From Escherichia phage NHEP1: a DNA stretch of 64,000 bases. The notes beneath the pieces were generated by a model. The model ran no database searches. It worked only from the letters and a program-made list of their open reading frames with translations, and was not told the DNA's origin. The position numbers and the translations under genes are program-made. The stretch lies in the sequence record PQ511146.1; one strand, written 5' to 3'. Below, piece after piece: positions 3,893 through 36,173 of the stretch. Numbering within the stretch: the stretch's first letter is position 1; each line of letters starts with the position of its first letter.

Positions 3893-4087
3893 TTACAGGT
3901 TACTCCAGTATACTCGGCATTTACACTTCGGGCAATGAGGTTCTTTTATGTAATAACCGTCAGTCTTTGGAACACTTTTTGGTGCAGTTTTAAGATTGTA
4001 CCGAGTAAAGCAACGGAAGCAGGTTACCTCTCCTACCTGTTGATCGTTTATCCACTCGCCAGAGTAAAGCTCTTTCTTGTTTCTCAT
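3893..4087 (-). CDS. zinc-ribbon protein (64 aa)
   Basis: ATG with GGGGAGA SD; CxxC...CxxC; track GTG extension to 4144 is less likely. Confidence 0.5.
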   Translation of the reverse strand: MRNKKELYSGEWINDQQVGEVTCFRCFTRYNLKTAPKSVPKTDGYYIKEPHCPKCKCRVYWSNL

Positions 4088-4089
4088 AA

Positions 4090-4284
4090 TTATCTCCCCA
4101 AGCCTCTGCAATCTTCTACCAGAATCTCCAGCCAGAAAGCACACGGGAACACTTTGATGATTGAATCTTCACTCGGCTCGGAAGTTCTTTTTCCGTAGGG
4201 CAGGTAGAAATACCCTCCTGCAGATTCAAACATGGCTCCTTCTGTTGTATCTATCACAGCTAGAATTAAGATTTTAGTCTCCAT
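4090..4284 (-). CDS. hypothetical protein (64 aa)
   Basis: ATG with GGGGAG SD. Confidence 0.5.
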   Translation of the reverse strand: METKILILAVIDTTEGAMFESAGGYFYLPYGKRTSEPSEDSIIKVFPCAFWLEILVEDCRGLGR

Positions 4285-10466: not shown

Positions 10467-13400
10467 TTAGTGACAATCACCCCAGTTACGACCGCACAAG
10501 TATTCACCTGTGATCTGGAACGGAACGCCCATCATTTTAGAAGCCTGCCAGAAGCAATGCACCACCATTTCGCCCACAGGGCTCCAGATAAGCTCAAGCT
10601 TTCCGTCATCATTCAAGATAGGATCGTATACCGTATTTCCATCCTTGTCAACCACTTCGTTTCCGTCCTCATCTTTGCGTGCCTTTTTGTACTTATGACC
10701 GTCGAACACATGAAGTTTAGCCTCTTGTTGGGCTTTAAATGTTTCCAGCTCTTCAATTGTGTCGAAGGTGTATACGGTTTTATACTTAGGTGTGTCAGGC
10801 ACTTGAAGCTGATATTCGTCATGGTAATAGATAATACGACGAACACCCTCATCATACCATCCACGCTTCACCATCTGGTGGTGCATGAGGATTCCGACCA
10901 AGTCGCACAACGATGCACCGCCATTTTGCTGATATGCATTAAGCAAAGAGTGTTTAGAGCGGGTCCAAATGGCATGCCCGTCAAAAGAGTAGATAAATTT
11001 CTTACCTGTTGCTTCCCAGAATTTCTCCAGATCCTCTTTACGCCCCTTAAGGCCCGGGTTGGCATCCCAGAGAGCATCAATTACTCTCTGTCCAAGTTCT
11101 GGAGAGATATCTAGCATATCTGCAACTTTATCTTTTTGTGCCCCGTACATAACCCCATATGTGACAGGCTTACCATCGTTACGGGAAATCTCCTTGCCTG
11201 CTACAGAAGAGTAAGCTTTGGCGTTATTACAGTTACCGCACACTGCCACTTTACCATTCCTTCTCACAATGATTGCTCCAGAAGGGACGGTAACGCAATA
11301 AACCAAAGAACCGCTCACCTCGACAGACTCTTTAGATAGTGTCAGCAACCCTGCTCTCTGTTTGCTACCAATCGTGATTCTGTGCTGTACGGAACGACCT
11401 TTTTTGTGAATCGCCACCGTATTATTCCGTAAACCACACTGAGTAGCCAGCGCAGACACAACCTCTACAGATTTCTTCCTGCACCCGGCCTGAGAGTAGT
11501 AGGCAACTTTTCCACCTTCGGAAGATACCCACCCGTCCCAGTTAGATAAAGAAGCTATAAACAGGTTTTTAGATTCTTTATCAAGGTCCATCAGGTTGTA
11601 GGTGAAATCCTTATTGCTGTCCAAAAACTCAAATACCCAGGACGGAACGTGGAATTGGAACCTTCTCGCCAGTAAGCCCCCTTTTGTGGTTTTCCCGCTC
11701 TGCTCTACATAACTAAGGCTTAGAGCAGAAAAAGTATCTAAAAGCGTTGCAACTTTTCTGCCCTTCCCGACCTGAATCCTGCACACGATGCTGCCGTCCT
11801 TATTTGTATGCAAGTGCCCATCATCGTGAATAGCAATAAGCAAATTAACCTGGGCAGGAGATAAGGTTGTATTCCCATAAAACTCTGCCGCATGGATAAA
11901 CCTTCTTCCTGAATTAGACCCTTTACCTGCTTTCAGGTCTTTTGCCAAATCTTCAAACAATTTATTGCTTCTGTGATCCACGGTCAGCATCCTGTGTTGA
12001 TCTGTAACCATAAAATCCACACTGCTGTTGTGGAAATGATACATATCCCCACAATAACTACGCTTAACGTAATTTAATGGAGTAACAAGGTTCATCGACG
12101 AGGTGTTGTGATCGTACTGGAACACCTGTGTTCCCGGATCAAGATCTTCAAACCTCACCCACCCTTTCTCCGTGAGAATTTGTGTATCTCCTGAATAACA
12201 GTGTGCATCGCCGTTACTTACAACATCATAATACAGACCGTTGTCAAACTCAAAGGCACCCCAGGCCCCGATGAGCTGCTCTAAGTTGGACCCGTCAATA
12301 CCGATCTCAAAGTATCCTGGAGGAACACCCCACAGACTACGCATCTCTTTACCCATAACCACTTTAGGAGATGGTTTAGGCATGTTTGCACAAATACTAT
12401 GTTTCTGTCTGGAAGTGTTTGTTAATCCAGAACTTTTAGCAGGAAGCTTGTGGTCAATCTTCAAACGTGGATGATTAAGAAGACCAGTATCAACCTTATC
12501 TTCCTTGATTGGATCAAGGACCGATCTGCGGTTTCGCAATGATAACCACAAAACGATATCTTTAGCCATCTCTCCGTTCAATTTTTCAAGATTCGGGCAC
12601 AGGTGTCCAAACGTATCTTTCAGTTGCGGAGAAGTAATAAGCGCTCTGGCTTTTCTACGTATCTTCCCAAACACTTCCTTTTTAATCCTTTCTGAGTTAG
12701 GGAAGCTTCGGAACTTATGCACAGTTGTCTGGAACTTGGCATCAGTTTTGTTCCAGAAGTTGATAATTAGATCACAATACTCTGACTCCAAAAGCTCGTC
12801 CATATATGCATATACTCGTGCATCAACATCTGCATCAGGTAAAGCTTTCTTCTTGCTGTCTTTAGTTACATCTTTAGTTCTCCACATTGTTGGGAGCCAA
12901 CCAGCACTGATCAGGTATCGCTTGATGTCGTCCTGATTGCTGATTTTCATAGGTATCTTGCAGTCAGGCATTCGCTTCTGCTGTAGGTCACTTATCGCCT
13001 GATCCATCAGCTCTTTAGGTAAAGGGTGTGGTGTAGAAGTTCCTTTGATATACCCCCTCAAGAAATCAGCCATCTTATCGGGGTCTTTACAGCCCATCTC
13101 TTCACACCATTTTATCCCCATCTTACTTACATCCCCTGTGGAGGTAAATGCTCGCTTAGGAGGAGCTTTGAACTCTAAAGCACTCATGTCCACAGGGTAG
13201 CCAAGCTTGTCTTTTAACCATTTCCAACCATTATTGGAGATTGTCCCATCTTGGTTAAACGGCTTTTCAGGGAACTTAGGCCGCTGAGACATTGATAACT
13301 CTTTTAAAGGAAGTTGTGGTTCAACACGATCAGCGATCTCTTTCATCCACGCATCGCAACGGTCACGTAAAGCAATAGCCCCATCTATGTCGAAATACAC

Positions 13401-14213
13401 CCCCTGTCGAGCCTGCAGCTCCATCAGGAAGTGCTGTAACATGCCTCGGCGTAATGCGTTCTTCCAGGTGATCTTCTTGAAGCCTTTCGGCTTCTCTTTG
13501 GCAGGATCGTACATAAAGTTCTGCATGTCAGATTTGCCGTAGAATACACCTTTTGATTCCGCTACCAACTCCTTCCAGAGCAACTCCTGGATGATAACGT
13601 CCTCGAACACACGATCCACATACTTCCACAGTGGAAGCTCACGCCAGTCATCGATTTGAACTTTCTGGTTACCAAGGGCATAGCCCCATGCCATAAGGCC
13701 ATGAGGCCCAACAGGCTGCATTTTCTTGGTAACTGGATTGAATACTGCGTCCGGACAACCTTTTGGCAAAGGGCGGTCAGGCCACAAGATTCGGCTCATC
13801 GCTAACGTATCAAACAGATTAACCGGGTGGTCGTTGATAGTCCCCATGCATTTAGGATCACGGAACATATCAAAATGAATACCGGATAATCTTTCCATCA
13901 GCATAAAGTCGTAACTGTAGCAGTTATGACAGTTCAAAGCCGTAGGTGACCAGTCTGAATTGCCTGTAAGCCAACCTTCCAACTCTGAAAAATCTGCTAT
14001 GCGAGCCTCAAAATCTGTATAAAGGGTCTTCTTTGCCAGAATGAAGTTCTTAGCTTTCTCCACATCCTCTTCAGAGTAGTGTGTGCGGTCATTTAGAGGA
14101 AGGAACAGCATAAAACGGTTCTTATTCAGCTCTTTAAACAAACCGCAGTGATAATAAAGATCTGGGTCTTCCAGCAGGCCAGAGGCCTCAAAATCGAACG
14201 ACCACATGCTCAT
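10467..14213 (-). CDS. family A DNA polymerase (3'-5' exo + pol) interrupted by an intein
   Basis: Exo I FDFEASGL; motif A IGIDGSNLEQL; motif B KPVTYGVMYG; motif C YYHDEY; AAGGAG SD; 1248-aa precursor. Confidence 0.9.
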   Translation of the reverse strand: MSMWSFDFEASGLLEDPDLYYHCGLFKELNKNRFMLFLPLNDRTHYSEEDVEKAKNFILAKKTLYTDFEARIADFSELEGWLTGNSDWSPTALNCHNCYSYDFMLMERLSGIHFDMFRDPKCMGTINDHPVNLFDTLAMSRILWPDRPLPKGCPDAVFNPVTKKMQPVGPHGLMAWGYALGNQKVQIDDWRELPLWKYVDRVFEDVIIQELLWKELVAESKGVFYGKSDMQNFMYDPAKEKPKGFKKITWKNALRRGMLQHFLMELQARQGVYFDIDGAIALRDRCDAWMKEIADRVEPQLPLKELSMSQRPKFPEKPFNQDGTISNNGWKWLKDKLGYPVDMSALEFKAPPKRAFTSTGDVSKMGIKWCEEMGCKDPDKMADFLRGYIKGTSTPHPLPKELMDQAISDLQQKRMPDCKIPMKISNQDDIKRYLISAGWLPTMWRTKDVTKDSKKKALPDADVDARVYAYMDELLESEYCDLIINFWNKTDAKFQTTVHKFRSFPNSERIKKEVFGKIRRKARALITSPQLKDTFGHLCPNLEKLNGEMAKDIVLWLSLRNRRSVLDPIKEDKVDTGLLNHPRLKIDHKLPAKSSGLTNTSRQKHSICANMPKPSPKVVMGKEMRSLWGVPPGYFEIGIDGSNLEQLIGAWGAFEFDNGLYYDVVSNGDAHCYSGDTQILTEKGWVRFEDLDPGTQVFQYDHNTSSMNLVTPLNYVKRSYCGDMYHFHNSSVDFMVTDQHRMLTVDHRSNKLFEDLAKDLKAGKGSNSGRRFIHAAEFYGNTTLSPAQVNLLIAIHDDGHLHTNKDGSIVCRIQVGKGRKVATLLDTFSALSLSYVEQSGKTTKGGLLARRFQFHVPSWVFEFLDSNKDFTYNLMDLDKESKNLFIASLSNWDGWVSSEGGKVAYYSQAGCRKKSVEVVSALATQCGLRNNTVAIHKKGRSVQHRITIGSKQRAGLLTLSKESVEVSGSLVYCVTVPSGAIIVRRNGKVAVCGNCNNAKAYSSVAGKEISRNDGKPVTYGVMYGAQKDKVADMLDISPELGQRVIDALWDANPGLKGRKEDLEKFWEATGKKFIYSFDGHAIWTRSKHSLLNAYQQNGGASLCDLVGILMHHQMVKRGWYDEGVRRIIYYHDEYQLQVPDTPKYKTVYTFDTIEELETFKAQQEAKLHVFDGHKYKKARKDEDGNEVVDKDGNTVYDPILNDDGKLELIWSPVGEMVVHCFWQASKMMGVPFQITGEYLCGRNWGDCH
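11232..12200 (-). other. intein (about 323 aa) within DNA polymerase, with LAGLIDADG-like endonuclease insert
   Basis: N-terminal CYSGDTQIL after extein ...GDAH; block B TDQH; block F VYCVTV; C-terminal ...VCGN followed by +1 Cys; LLIAIHDDGH and LFIASLSNWDGW resemble LAGLIDADG motifs. Confidence 0.7.
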
Positions 14214-14271: not shown

Positions 14272-16350
14272 TTAAAAAGGTGTTTCGTCGTCTTCAAAAC
14301 CAGGAACGTGGTTAGAGGACGGATCATCATACTGAAGGTCTTCCTGTGTGTCAACAGGGTTAACAGCAGGGGTTATAACCTTATCAGCCACAACCTTGCC
14401 CACAGGTGTTTCTACAACTGCATGCTCCTGATCCTCAAACATAGCCTGAGGTCTCCAAACAACCTCCCCACCTTCCCCGTCTGTAAACATCTGCATTTCT
14501 TTGTCCCAGTACCAGTTGCTGGCATCATAGAACTTGCCTGTGTGGGGATCCATAACTAGAGTGTCCGCAATACCTAAGGTTTTTGCTGGGCGGTTTTTAA
14601 GACCTACCAGTCGGACACGTCCACGGGAACGATCCACCATCTCCTCTGCCTCTACCCCGACAACCACCCAGCTAAGTTGCTCCAATCCGGCACTACCGCG
14701 AAGGTTCTCTTTTCGTACAGGGTACCAGAAAGGTAACGGATTTCCATCCTTATCCTTCGGAGGTACAATCTCTGTGCGCTTCAGGTGAGCAATCACCAAG
14801 ATAAACACATTAAACTGCTTACAGAACGCGGCTAGTTGAGTCATAGCCATGTCAAGCTCTTTACGCTCATCCTTAACATTAAGCCCTGAAATCACCATAG
14901 ACAGGTGATCCAGCACAATGTAACGGCAGTGATACAGGCACACCATTTGTTTAAGCTTAGTGATCAGCTCATCTACAGGGATGGAGCCGAAATGCTTGAA
15001 CACTTTGATTTTTCCGGCCTTGGCCCAAGATTGATGAATCTCAGCGTGCTCCTGATCGGTCAGGAACTGACTGGGGTCTTCAACAAACTCTTTAACATCA
15101 AACCCCAGCTGGTTAGCGTACAGAGAGTTGATTGCTTCCTCAGGATCCTCTTCAAGGTGAATCAGGCACAGGCGATCATCCTCTTCATAATCATCAGCTT
15201 TAGGGCATGTTGGATCCATCAAGTATCTTGCAATGCAATGTTCCAGCTTCTTGGCTACAGTTGTTTTACCACCGCCAGACGGGCCTGTCAGCATCATCAA
15301 GGTGCCTTTGTGGAGTCCTTTCAGCATCTTCTGCAGTTTAGGGAACTCTGCACTGATATCTACGCCATTGGAAGTCTTCTTACGAAGAGATTCAATGGAG
15401 AAGTCTTCTAAATCAGATACAGCATCAGGCACATATTTGACTGGGTGACGGAACATGTTGACAATATCTTCCAGCTTTTTAGCCTTCAGCATGTCACGAA
15501 TATCTTTTACACCATCAGGGTCGTTTACCTCACCCGGGTATTCCACGTGGTAAACGTTATCAGCCATCAAAAATGCTGCGATATTATGTGTGGCTTCAAC
15601 ACCTTTAATAACGTGTTTTTGCTTCTCTACCTCGTTAGCTGCATCGTTGTCCATTGCAAGGACCACTGTTCCGTAGCTACGGATAAATTTCTCATTGTTC
15701 GCAAAAGTGTCTACGGCGTTTGCACACCCACAGTTAATTCCAACAAAAGGCAGGCATGGTTTTCCTGCCAGATCCCCGCCGTTGATAACTGCATCAATCC
15801 CATCCTGGACTTCTTTAGCCCACTGCTTCACCTTCGCTGGGGCTTTAGCATTGGTGAGAATTCCTTTTACTTGTATCTGATATGCAGCCTGCCACGCTGC
15901 AATAACATCTCCTTCTCCCTCACAAACGTTAATCTGCTTACGGTTGTTGGAGGATGCACACAGCTTTTGACCAAACATCTGGGAGTTGGCCTTTACTATG
16001 CCAACAACCGAGAAATGGCCCCTTTGCTCTTTAGGGATTGTCCAGTCACGCTTTTTAAAGCCAGATAGATTACCGTAGCGGTCATAATACGGAAAGTAGG
16101 TGGCAGTAACAGTTACACCATCCTCTTGGGATAGCGATGATCGTACACCAAAATATTGTGCAGCCATCAGTCCAATATTTTGTTGTGGAACAGGGACAAT
16201 TTTAGTGTTTTCTAAAACAGTCTCCACAGTTTCAACTTCTTTTTCATCACGATAGTCTCGTTTCACACTCCCCCCACTTTTATACTTAGTTGCTTTCGGG
16301 TTTGGCTCACCGAAACGGTTGTATGCAGATGCCATGAATTTACTGCCCAT
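14272..16350 (-). CDS. T7 gp4-like DNA primase-helicase
   Basis: TOPRIM-like VCEGEGDVIAAW; DnaB-type Walker A GPSGGGKTT and Walker B IVLDHL; acidic C-terminus ending DDETPF; AAGGAGAAG SD; no Cys4 zinc-binding domain seen. Confidence 0.85.
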   Translation of the reverse strand: MGSKFMASAYNRFGEPNPKATKYKSGGSVKRDYRDEKEVETVETVLENTKIVPVPQQNIGLMAAQYFGVRSSLSQEDGVTVTATYFPYYDRYGNLSGFKKRDWTIPKEQRGHFSVVGIVKANSQMFGQKLCASSNNRKQINVCEGEGDVIAAWQAAYQIQVKGILTNAKAPAKVKQWAKEVQDGIDAVINGGDLAGKPCLPFVGINCGCANAVDTFANNEKFIRSYGTVVLAMDNDAANEVEKQKHVIKGVEATHNIAAFLMADNVYHVEYPGEVNDPDGVKDIRDMLKAKKLEDIVNMFRHPVKYVPDAVSDLEDFSIESLRKKTSNGVDISAEFPKLQKMLKGLHKGTLMMLTGPSGGGKTTVAKKLEHCIARYLMDPTCPKADDYEEDDRLCLIHLEEDPEEAINSLYANQLGFDVKEFVEDPSQFLTDQEHAEIHQSWAKAGKIKVFKHFGSIPVDELITKLKQMVCLYHCRYIVLDHLSMVISGLNVKDERKELDMAMTQLAAFCKQFNVFILVIAHLKRTEIVPPKDKDGNPLPFWYPVRKENLRGSAGLEQLSWVVVGVEAEEMVDRSRGRVRLVGLKNRPAKTLGIADTLVMDPHTGKFYDASNWYWDKEMQMFTDGEGGEVVWRPQAMFEDQEHAVVETPVGKVVADKVITPAVNPVDTQEDLQYDDPSSNHVPGFEDDETPF

Positions 16351-17104
16351 TAATTCTTCTCCTTACTGCAGGCTCGTTTGCTAAGAATACAGCTCTTGCC
16401 CAGCCACGTGGTGTAAGGCTTCGAATCATCTTCGTCCTTGCACTCTTTCCACCTAGCTTAGCGTGTTGCATGGAATAACCACTAACCGCATCAACTATTT
16501 GCGGGACAGGTTTTGTGGCGGGGATTATAAATCCATTGCCTATCCAACCGCAAGTTATTTTTGGGTAGGCATCACGTGGAGCTATAAATTCAGGAAACCA
16601 TGGGTTTACATCATCCTCTGGTAAATACCCACCATAATCCGAAGGATGAAAACGGTAATCAGGTTTTCGCCACAGTGTTGACATAACTCCTACAGGGTTC
16701 TCTACATGCCACGGGCAATCGTAAATCTCTCCCAACTCTTCTGCAACCCGAGCATCTTTCACAGCATTAATTTGGATCAGAGGATCCTTAGCCAGCTTTT
16801 TCTTAAAGTGTGCAGCTCCGGATACTGCTAAATGCGTGCACGGAGGAAATGCAAGAATAAAGTCTGGAGCCGGATACATGCAAAAAGTTTCTTGAGGGAA
16901 CCATGGATCAATCCAATAATCCACATAGTGAATGTTAGGATGATCGGTTATCACCTCTACATAACTACCGTGGTCAGCACCTTCTGCATTAAAGCACAGG
17001 CACAGGTACCCAGCTTTTGCCCAGTCAATAACTGCACCACCGGACCCGTCAAATAGACTCCACACGACACCTTTGTGGTAGTGTTCTTTGTAGATAAATT
17101 TCAA
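16340..17104 (-). CDS. DNA (cytosine-5)-methyltransferase-like protein
   Basis: motif I FDGSGG, motif IV FPPC, motif VI HVENPVG; TTG start 7 nt after AGGAGA; track GTG at 17134 lies inside the terminator hairpin. Confidence 0.5.
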   Translation of the reverse strand: MKFIYKEHYHKGVVWSLFDGSGGAVIDWAKAGYLCLCFNAEGADHGSYVEVITDHPNIHYVDYWIDPWFPQETFCMYPAPDFILAFPPCTHLAVSGAAHFKKKLAKDPLIQINAVKDARVAEELGEIYDCPWHVENPVGVMSTLWRKPDYRFHPSDYGGYLPEDDVNPWFPEFIAPRDAYPKITCGWIGNGFIIPATKPVPQIVDAVSGYSMQHAKLGGKSARTKMIRSLTPRGWARAVFLANEPAVRRRINGQ

Positions 17105-17120
17105 TTTGCTGTCTCCTAAT

Positions 17121-17149
17121 GCAAAAAGCCCCACCCTTTCGGGCAGGGC
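17121..17149 (-). terminator. rho-independent terminator (same GAAA-loop hairpin as at 6014)
   Basis: GCCCUGCCC-GAAA-GGGUGGGGC + UUUUUG on minus strand downstream of gene 17156..17638. Confidence 0.55.
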
Positions 17150-35969: not shown

Positions 35970-35972
35970 GAA

Positions 35973-36173
35973 ATGGCTGATTTTTGTAAAGATTGCTCTG
36001 AAGAGTTGTTTGGCTTTGACTGCAAAGATTTGGAAGGTCTGATCACTGAGGATCAGTGGAAGGAAGGCTATGCAGCACCTGTTATTTGTGAAGGTTGTGG
36101 CTATACCTATGTTGACCATAAAGGTAAGCGCGTCAAGCCGTCTGAAGATGGGGCATGTTGGGAGTATTACTAA
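35973..36173 (+). CDS. zinc-ribbon protein (66 aa)
   Basis: ATG 7 nt after GAGGA; CKDC...CEGC. Confidence 0.5.
   Translation: MADFCKDCSEELFGFDCKDLEGLITEDQWKEGYAAPVICEGCGYTYVDHKGKRVKPSEDGACWEYY

Follow-up and report, generated by a model that had tools for sequence, protein, structure and literature searches.

A gp4-like primase-helicase without the N-terminal zinc ribbon in Escherichia phage NHEP1 and a broad clade of related phages: a candidate for ribbon-independent priming

The 64,000-nucleotide stretch of Escherichia phage NHEP1 considered here (sequence record PQ511146.1; hereafter the window) encodes a primase-helicase related to T7 gp4 that lacks the Cys4 zinc ribbon of that enzyme. 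The absence of this zinc-binding domain (ZBD) is genuine, it is shared by a large clade of phages from several bacterial hosts, and it is accompanied by strict conservation of the catalytic residues of both the TOPRIM primase and the helicase domains. On balance we lean toward the view, drawn from sequence comparison, that this protein is an autonomous replicative primase-helicase that would prime without a zinc ribbon, with a basic cleft, a basic and Tyr-rich N-terminal tail and possibly an insertion in the TOPRIM domain handling the template and the primer. The gene and its parts, in the coordinates of the window, are the following.

14272..16350, minus strand: complete gene for the ZBD-less gp4-like primase-helicase, 692 amino acids plus stop, from the list of open reading frames (ORFs)
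16359..16365, minus strand: start context read directly from the sequence, with an in-frame TAA (16365-16363) overlapping the Shine-Dalgarno element AAGGAG (16364-16359)
16240..16350, minus strand: N-terminal tail (residues 1-37), Lys/Arg/Tyr-rich, Cys-free, predicted to be disordered (predicted local distance difference test [pLDDT] <50), unaligned to T7 gp4 and standing in place of its ZBD and linker
15946..16239, minus strand: N-terminal subdomain (residues 38-135) of the RNA-polymerase (primase) domain (RPD), with a conserved ETVxxV lead-in and the basic residues K99, R101, K107, and K120 (pLDDT about 90)
15436..15945, minus strand: TOPRIM subdomain (residues 136-305), with the metal-binding residues E144 (EGEGD), D234/D236 (DNDAA), and D283 (KDIRD) by alignment to T7
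15760..15888, minus strand: Lys-rich helical-hairpin insertion of about 35 amino acids within the TOPRIM subdomain (residues about 155-197), opposite a gap in T7 in the hhalign alignment, with helices modelled at 146-166 and 172-189
15361..15435, minus strand: region aligned to the T7 gp4 linker, with low pLDDT at residues 309-325
14431..15360, minus strand: SF4 (DnaB/gp4d-type) helicase (residues 331-640), with Walker A GPSGGGKT (K362), E400, Walker B D481, H522, and Arg finger R587
14275..14430, minus strand: acidic C-terminal tail (residues 641-692), predicted to be disordered (pLDDT <50), ending FEDDETPF

Megablast places the window among the rV5/FV3-like E. coli myophages (Vequintavirinae; rV5/FV3-like Vequintavirus), where it corresponds to FV3 114371-136947 followed by FV3 1-41510 at 92-96% nucleotide identity. 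The primase-helicase gene itself is 98.7% identical in nucleotides to its counterpart in phage ECP32 and 96% to that in FV3, and at least 80% of its length is covered by 113 phage records at 80-99% nucleotide identity, the listed annotated records among which call a coding sequence of the same span a primase/helicase or an AAA-ATPase. Relatives carry the label 'DNA replicative helicase/primase', and RefSeq gives only 'AAA family ATPase'. The start of the gene is secure. The AAGGAG element lies 8 nt from the ATG at 16350, the in-frame TAA lies 12 nt upstream of that ATG, and a 264-amino-acid ORF upstream (16340..17134, minus strand) overlaps the start by 11 nt. Because of this stop and the overlapping upstream gene, an N-terminal extension bearing a zinc ribbon is excluded; the ZBD-less form is the sole product of the gene, with no in-frame coding capacity upstream of it. 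A ZBD hidden by a wrong start or a frameshift is likewise refuted by the TAA, the Shine-Dalgarno element, and the overlap. Nor is there room for an arrangement of the T7 gp4B type, in which a short form made from an internal start accompanies a longer one, as the upstream sequence holds the TAA 12 nt away and then the gene of a predicted methyltransferase.

Within the protein, residues 1-130 contain no Cys at all, the first being residue 131, and H112 is the sole His before that position; the initial annotation, which had noted the lack of Cys pairs in the first 130 or so residues, is thereby borne out in a stronger form. A hidden Markov model (HMM) trained on 21 gp4-type ZBDs scores the 692-residue protein at -0.2 bits, as against 19-43 bits for positive controls left out of the training, which include the ZBDs of Pakpunavirus and phi92-like phages. 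The match to PHROG_239 ('DNA primase/helicase') is strong (E = 3.5e-158), and it begins only at position 86 of the 801 in the profile, the N-terminal columns being missing. When a profile of 34 close homologues is aligned to T7 gp4 with hhalign (probability 99.9, E = 4.8e-35), residues 53-599 of the query match residues 80-534 of T7, and T7 residues 1-79, which comprise the ZBD, the linker, and the first residues of the RPD, remain unmatched. This alignment, which the initial annotation had proposed as a check, reveals no divergent but intact ZBD. A divergent version within residues 1-130 is ruled out by the combination of zero Cys, the negative HMM score, and the disorder of residues 1-37 in the AlphaFold2 model. 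The protein thus truly lacks the gp4 Cys4 ribbon.

The TOPRIM-like and DnaB-like motifs that the initial annotation had read in the sequence are real, being recovered by PHROG_239, hhalign, and Foldseek and, in the helicase part only, by the Pfam models DnaB_C (E = 3.8e-13) and AAA_25 (E = 1.6e-15); phmmer matches the helicase of T7 gp4 at E = 1e-15. The AlphaFold2 model has a mean pLDDT of 77.9, with values of about 90 over residues 40-305 and good values over the helicase, and predicts disorder at residues 1-37 and 640-692 (pLDDT <50). Its best matches in the Protein Data Bank by Foldseek are the ZBD-less T7 gp4 structures 5ikn, 6n9x, and 1q57 (E of about 1e-30 over some 570-590 alignment columns), followed by Twinkle. 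By these comparisons and the model, a linker joins the TOPRIM RNA-polymerase domain to the SF4 helicase, an architecture that matches the domain content of the 56-kDa gp4B of T7. The protein closes with an acidic terminus ending in Phe, mostly in Pro-Phe, which recurs in nearly all homologues, F692 being nearly invariant. In T7 gp4 the C-terminal tail binds the polymerase, and by analogy the corresponding tail here is likely to be a polymerase-docking element.

The catalytic apparatus is intact in both halves of the protein. In the primase part, E144, D234/D236, and D283 align to T7 E157, D207/D209, and D237, and K99, R101, K120, and F126-G127 align to T7 K122, R124, K137, and F142-G143, while K107 also corresponds to a basic residue of T7; in the helicase part, K362, E400, D481, H522, and R587 align to T7 K318, E343, D424, H465, and R522. 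We assessed conservation in two sets, namely the 34 close homologues, with identities down to 42%, and 40 diverse ZBD-less homologues with a mean column identity of 31%. E144, G145, D234, D236, D283, K362, E400, D481, H522, and R587 are invariant in both sets, and K99, K107, H112, F126, G127, and Q128 are also invariant among the close homologues. In the diverse set, the invariant columns are P87, G117, E144, G145, G208, D234, D236, G250, and D283 in the primase part and G361, K362, E400, D481, H522, and R587 in the helicase part, that is to say, essentially the two active sites. Across 150 representatives the catalytic residues of both domains are near-universal. Degeneration of the primase catalytic residues, the trait of Twinkle-type proteins, is hence not what is observed here: the residues are kept, and they are invariant across the clade. 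Animal Twinkle lost its primase activity through sequence changes in the primase domain (PMC3610141, PMC9860392); set against those changes, the strict conservation of the TOPRIM residues argues for a catalytically active primase domain.

The initial annotation had treated the missing ribbon as a peculiarity of one gene, but it is clade-wide. An exhaustive phmmer search with residues 1-320 over 1.84 billion cluster representatives recovered 188 relatives, for which 100 alignments, each standing for a cluster at 50% identity, could be evaluated. In 84 of these 100 clusters, fewer than 70 residues precede the RPD core, with 0-2 Cys among them and never a CxxC...CxxC pattern; a short N-terminus in so many clusters indicates that the lack reflects neither chance nor a sequencing artefact. 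The remaining 16 have 71-117 residues before the core, with a strict C4 ribbon in 10 and a C/H4 ribbon in 13. The ZBD-less members include ORF57 of Vibrio phage ICP1 (48% identity) and the proteins of Acinetobacter phage Phab24, Vibrio phage PWH3a-P1, and Shewanella phage 1/4. Members of the clade infect bacteria of the genera Escherichia, Vibrio, Acinetobacter, Aeromonas, and Shewanella, and their identity to the query falls to about 25%. The C4 ribbon is kept in T7, in Pakpunavirus, and in phi92-like phages, and its retention in the homologues of the latter two groups indicates a loss of the ZBD on the branch from which the rV5/ICP1 group descends. A neighbor-joining tree, which is crude, has long star-like branches and a sampling biased toward the query, and gives only a hint on the direction of loss, places the ZBD-bearing forms mostly at the base and most ZBD-less forms in one large group. 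Taken together, these sequence relationships suggest loss of the ZBD in at least one major lineage.

What stands in place of the ribbon has a recognizable composition. In 89 ZBD-less representatives, the tails before the (K/R)ETVxxV motif have a median length of 20 residues, are poor in hydrophobic residues, and contain 0.2% Cys, while Lys and Arg together make up 21% (versus 13% in the remainder of the protein) and Tyr 9.3% (versus 3.8%). The TOPRIM insertion has a narrower range: E144 and G208 lie 63-68 residues apart in the query, ICP1, and P0121 and 26-38 apart in all other representatives, with medians of 33 in the ZBD-less forms and 31.5 in those with long N-termini. We considered the insertion as a general compensation for ZBD loss and rejected it, as it is confined to the rV5/ICP1/P0121 subclade.

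A second line of evidence comes from the search for another primase or a separate zinc-binding subunit. The gp4-ZBD HMM was run on 6087 stop-to-stop ORFs of at least 20 amino acids from the window, the complete genome of FV3, and the ICP1 locus, and its best score there was 8.9 bits (E = 0.37), which is noise only. Pfam detects no DnaG-type (zf-CHC2) ribbon in the Cys-rich candidates, these rather than every ORF being what that search covered. The FV3 RefSeq annotation contains no other primase. Neither PHROGs, for seven non-structural hypothetical proteins of at least 188 amino acids, nor Pfam, for the largest of these (408 amino acids) and part of the small ORFs, returns a primase family. 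In ICP1 and Phab24, the genes that directly precede the orthologue encode at most one Cys, and no conserved Cys-rich neighbor gene is seen in rV5-like phages, ICP1, or Phab24. In these searches no stand-alone gene for a primase-type Zn ribbon, as expected of a split primase, was found. Two small proteins of the window do bear four Cys.

3896..4168, minus strand: Cys4 mini-protein matching PF23903 ('phage zinc binding domain') and phrog_4864, also found in RB49-like T-even phages
35970..36170, plus strand: Cys4 mini-protein matching phrog_2210, also found in Felix O1-like and T5-like phages

Both belong to families unrelated to primase ribbons, with homologues in T4-like, Felix O1-like, and T5-like phages, and among the top organisms or sampled rows for these homologues there is no record from ICP1, another Vibrio phage, or an Acinetobacter phage. 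Family assignment and phyletic distribution accordingly argue against them as surrogates for the ZBD. A further candidate is FV3_00093, which lies outside the window and encodes a DnaQ-like 3'-5' exonuclease (phrog_403, 'DNA polymerase exonuclease subunit') whose C-terminal end bears a C4 ribbon (CPRC...CEGC); we rejected it on account of its position and of its presence in the ZBD-keeping Pakpunavirus and phi92-like groups as well. Many phages with a T7-like polymerase encode an exonuclease of this type, examples being ICP1, Pakpunavirus, phiKMV-like phages, and mycobacteriophages. The initial annotation had offered two ways out for an enzyme without a ribbon. Reliance on a small zinc-ribbon protein of the window finds no support, given the lack of a gp4-ZBD match, the unrelated families, and the lack of covariation with the ZBD-less clade; a different mode of recognition is best compatible with the invariant primase residues of a deep ZBD-less clade and with the absence of any other primase detectable in FV3.

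The gene adjoins that of a family-A DNA polymerase, and the order primase-helicase followed by PolA is kept in all contexts examined, namely in rV5-like phages, ICP1, Phab24, Pakpunavirus, and phi92-like phages.

10467..14213, minus strand: family-A DNA polymerase, the downstream partner, carrying an intein and adjoining the primase-helicase
11232..12200, minus strand: intein-like insertion in the polymerase, 323 amino acids (residues 672-994), starting CYSGDTQIL and ending VAVCGN, followed by Cys, with LAGLIDADG-like motifs

The intein is absent from the 925-amino-acid polymerase of phage nomo, which aligns on either side of it through residues 1-671 and 673-925; Pfam gives only a weak match to Hint_2. 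The FV3 annotation splits the polymerase into FV3_00209 and FV3_00206, with the gene of an HNH endonuclease between them (FV3 124802-128421), and the intein of the window falls within a stretch that does not align to FV3 (window 10808..12201 compared); the polymerase gene is in this way interrupted by different selfish elements in close relatives. Other replication functions are also present: genes for a DNA ligase and an exonuclease in the FV3 genome fit the processing of Okazaki fragments, and the phage further encodes a Pif1-like helicase, a RuvC-like resolvase, and endonuclease VII.

Several additional observations concern the surroundings and the relatives of the gene. The overlapping upstream ORF (16340..17134) is labelled Dcm or DNA cytosine methyltransferase in relatives and contains the motifs FPPCTHLAVSG and ENP, with no Pfam match at E <= 0.1; its 11-nt overlap with the start of the primase-helicase suggests translational coupling. 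ORF56 of ICP1_2011_B (66 amino acids), just upstream of the primase-helicase there, appears to duplicate the C-terminal portion of the neighboring RNase H gene, ORF55, with which it shares the motif KNKELI...VKAHSG...NE.ADRLA.EA..K.KEEYEK. Many close homologues of the primase-helicase are 975-1025 rather than about 670-690 amino acids long and match no more than about 80% of the query as a single segment, which suggests intein-type insertions of about 300 amino acids in the helicase domain; the copy in the window has no such insertion. Finally, 16-19 GenBank records of 'Campylobacter phage' (e.g., C15 and C7, about 135 kb) are highly identical to this E. coli Vequintavirus, at 80-95% in nucleotides for the primase-helicase gene and 92-96% in amino acids for both mini-proteins; their host assignments are probably wrong or the preparations contaminated.

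In the mechanism that we favor, the ring helicase would translocate 5'-3' on the lagging-strand template, and the TOPRIM domains atop the ring would still make RNA primers by themselves. The roles of the ZBD, namely selection of the template site, holding of the short primer, and hand-off to the polymerase, would pass to the basic cleft and the Lys/Arg/Tyr-rich tail, and in the rV5/ICP1 subclade the Lys-rich helical insertion might share them. The specificity for priming sites would probably be relaxed or different. The acidic, Phe-ending C-terminal tail would tether the adjacent family-A polymerase, as in T7.

A number of points weigh against this reading. The Toprim and primase models of Pfam and NCBIfam stay below threshold on the 692-residue protein, and the primase domain must therefore be divergent. 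The TOPRIM acidic residues could owe their conservation to a different metal-dependent function, and it is from composition and position only that the N-terminal tail and the insertion derive the functions proposed for them. The 56-kDa form of gp4 from T7, the one phage member to have been studied closely, is a helicase without template-directed primer synthesis, making only random dinucleotides, and these slowly (PMC2910064). The gp4-type enzymes characterized to date are those of T7, Arabidopsis Twinkle, and Dictyostelium Twinkle, of which the T7 and Arabidopsis enzymes carry the zinc domain (PMC10557236, PMC6299598), and no primase of the gp4 type that lacks the ZBD is known to be active (PMC10557236).

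These points lend some weight to an alternative that we regard as rather unlikely, in which the protein is a helicase only, with the TOPRIM domain retained as a structural, DNA-loading, or polymerase-contact module and primers supplied by host DnaG, RNA-polymerase transcripts, or recombination intermediates. The primase-deficient T7 form just mentioned has full helicase function (PMC2910064), loading of the T7 hexamer onto DNA requires residues of its primase domain (PMC9198812), and in human Twinkle the N-terminal domain binds DNA but lacks primase activity (PMC9860392); the Pif1-like helicase, the RuvC-like resolvase, endonuclease VII, and the exonuclease would fit recombination-driven replication. 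Yet the metal-binding Glu and Asp residues and those of the basic cleft are invariant down to about 25% identity, which one would not expect if the domain had a structural role only, and the corresponding domain of metazoan Twinkle did change in sequence when its activity was lost (PMC3610141). Host supply also faces difficulties. DnaG is normally recruited through DnaB and not through a gp4-type ring, and the hosts range over five genera, from Escherichia and Vibrio to Acinetobacter, Aeromonas, and Shewanella, a breadth that makes a common host factor less likely.

Considerably less probable is a two-piece primase in which a separate zinc protein, encoded by the phage or the host and conceivably unlike the gp4 ribbon in structure, would provide the ZBD function in trans, the candidates being the mini-proteins of the window and the DnaQ-like exonuclease. 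Such complementation has precedents, in that the zinc-finger domain and the RPD of Arabidopsis primase, produced as separate proteins, are able to complement one another (PMC10557236), the ZBDs of T7 act in trans between subunits (PMC2910064), and in some jumbo phages a primase-type Zn ribbon is encoded on its own next to a DnaG Toprim protein (PMC7824862). Proteins with suitable Cys quartets do exist here, in the two mini-proteins and the ribbon-tailed exonuclease of FV3. Against it stand the best HMM score among the ORFs, far short of the range reached by independent ZBDs, the assignment of the mini-proteins to PF23903 and phrog_2210 together with their distribution, the occurrence of the ribbon exonuclease in ZBD-keeping groups, and the want of a conserved Cys-rich neighbor in the three lineages inspected. 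An artefact of start calling, frameshift, or assembly that hides a normal ZBD is of negligible probability, as nothing was found in its favor and it is contradicted by the strong Shine-Dalgarno element, the in-frame stop, the gene overlap, the 113 phage records covering the gene, and the short N-terminus in 84 independent clusters.

In every TOPRIM (DnaG/gp4) primase studied, to our knowledge, the ZBD picks the priming site, stabilizes the tiny primer, and helps in its hand-off to the polymerase. Against this background, we advance tentatively, as a possibility that we rate below an even chance, the wider proposal that a large phage radiation (Vequintavirinae, ICP1, and many myophages of Vibrio, Acinetobacter, Aeromonas, and Shewanella) primes its lagging strands with a DnaG/TOPRIM primase needing no ZBD. 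In these phages the short, disordered Lys/Arg/Tyr-rich tail would replace the ribbon in contacts with the template, the initiating nucleotide, and the primer, the insertion would help in the rV5/ICP1 branch, and specificity would be relaxed or novel. If true, the working rule by which no TOPRIM primase can carry out template-directed synthesis without a ZBD would fall. Were these enzymes to prime alone, they would embody a minimal ZBD-independent mechanism, possibly with low sequence bias and useful for primase-based amplification, and would change how primases are recognized in phage genomes, where RefSeq now offers no more than an ATPase label. If they do not prime, then these phages must obtain their primers in an unconventional way; among them are rV5-like phages in therapeutic use and the cholera phage ICP1, a phage whose replisome PLE satellites hijack. 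In either case, we are faced with a whole phage-replisome lineage that has only the ZBD-less form, with a conserved catalytic center and no other primase or gp4-type ZBD detectable in FV3. A large, conserved, and, judging from its residues, apparently active ZBD-less TOPRIM lineage is a testable challenge to the accepted role of the ZBD.

In the literature, the genome paper of rV5 goes no further than to name the protein a possible helicase with gp4d/DnaB domains (PMC3606486), publications on ICP1 call the orthologue a T7-like helicase-primase (PMC7145576), and a global survey of viral replication proteins leaves ZBD-less forms unmentioned (PMC4889955). We found no description of a clade-wide ZBD loss in the searchable literature, and no precedent there for an active ZBD-less gp4-type primase. 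TtDnaG2 possesses a ZBD, and Dictyostelium Twinkle has been reported to keep all gp4 residues essential for primase activity.

Among the closest known systems is the 63-kDa gp4A of T7, a two-domain enzyme in which a linker likewise joins the TOPRIM RNA-polymerase domain to the SF4 helicase. All catalytic residues align between the two proteins, and both have an acidic C-terminal tail ending in Phe and an adjacent gene for a family-A DNA polymerase. The protein of the window differs in that T7 has a Cys4 ribbon (C17, C20, C36, and C39) and a linker, essential for template-directed priming, where the phage protein has a Cys-free tail of 37 amino acids; it also carries the extra TOPRIM insertion of about 35 amino acids, and identity is only about 22-27%. 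In domain content it is essentially the same as the 56-kDa gp4B, made without a ZBD from an internal start at Met64, the alignment beginning at T7 residue 80. However, gp4B is primase-deficient and is made together with gp4A (PMC2910064), whereas the ZBD-less form is here the sole product and the sole primase candidate in FV3. Metazoan Twinkle is likewise a gp4-like protein without a functional zinc finger (Foldseek E of about 1e-19), but its primase domain is changed and inactive (PMC3610141, PMC9860392), unlike that of the phage clade with its invariant catalytic residues. Domain loss as such is not exotic, T7 and Twinkle being partial precedents for it. Nearer to the query, ICP1 ORF57 and the proteins of Phab24, PWH3a-P1, and Shewanella phage 1/4 are orthologues at 37-48% identity with the same short, Cys-free N-terminus and the same gene order with PolA, and they differ from it in sequence divergence only; that of ICP1 shares the TOPRIM insertion as well. 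The homologues of Pakpunavirus and of the phi92-like phages (Justusliebigvirus), at about 21-23% identity, are found in similar myophages and also adjoin PolA, but they have kept the canonical N-terminal C4 ribbon, CPxC...CxxC.

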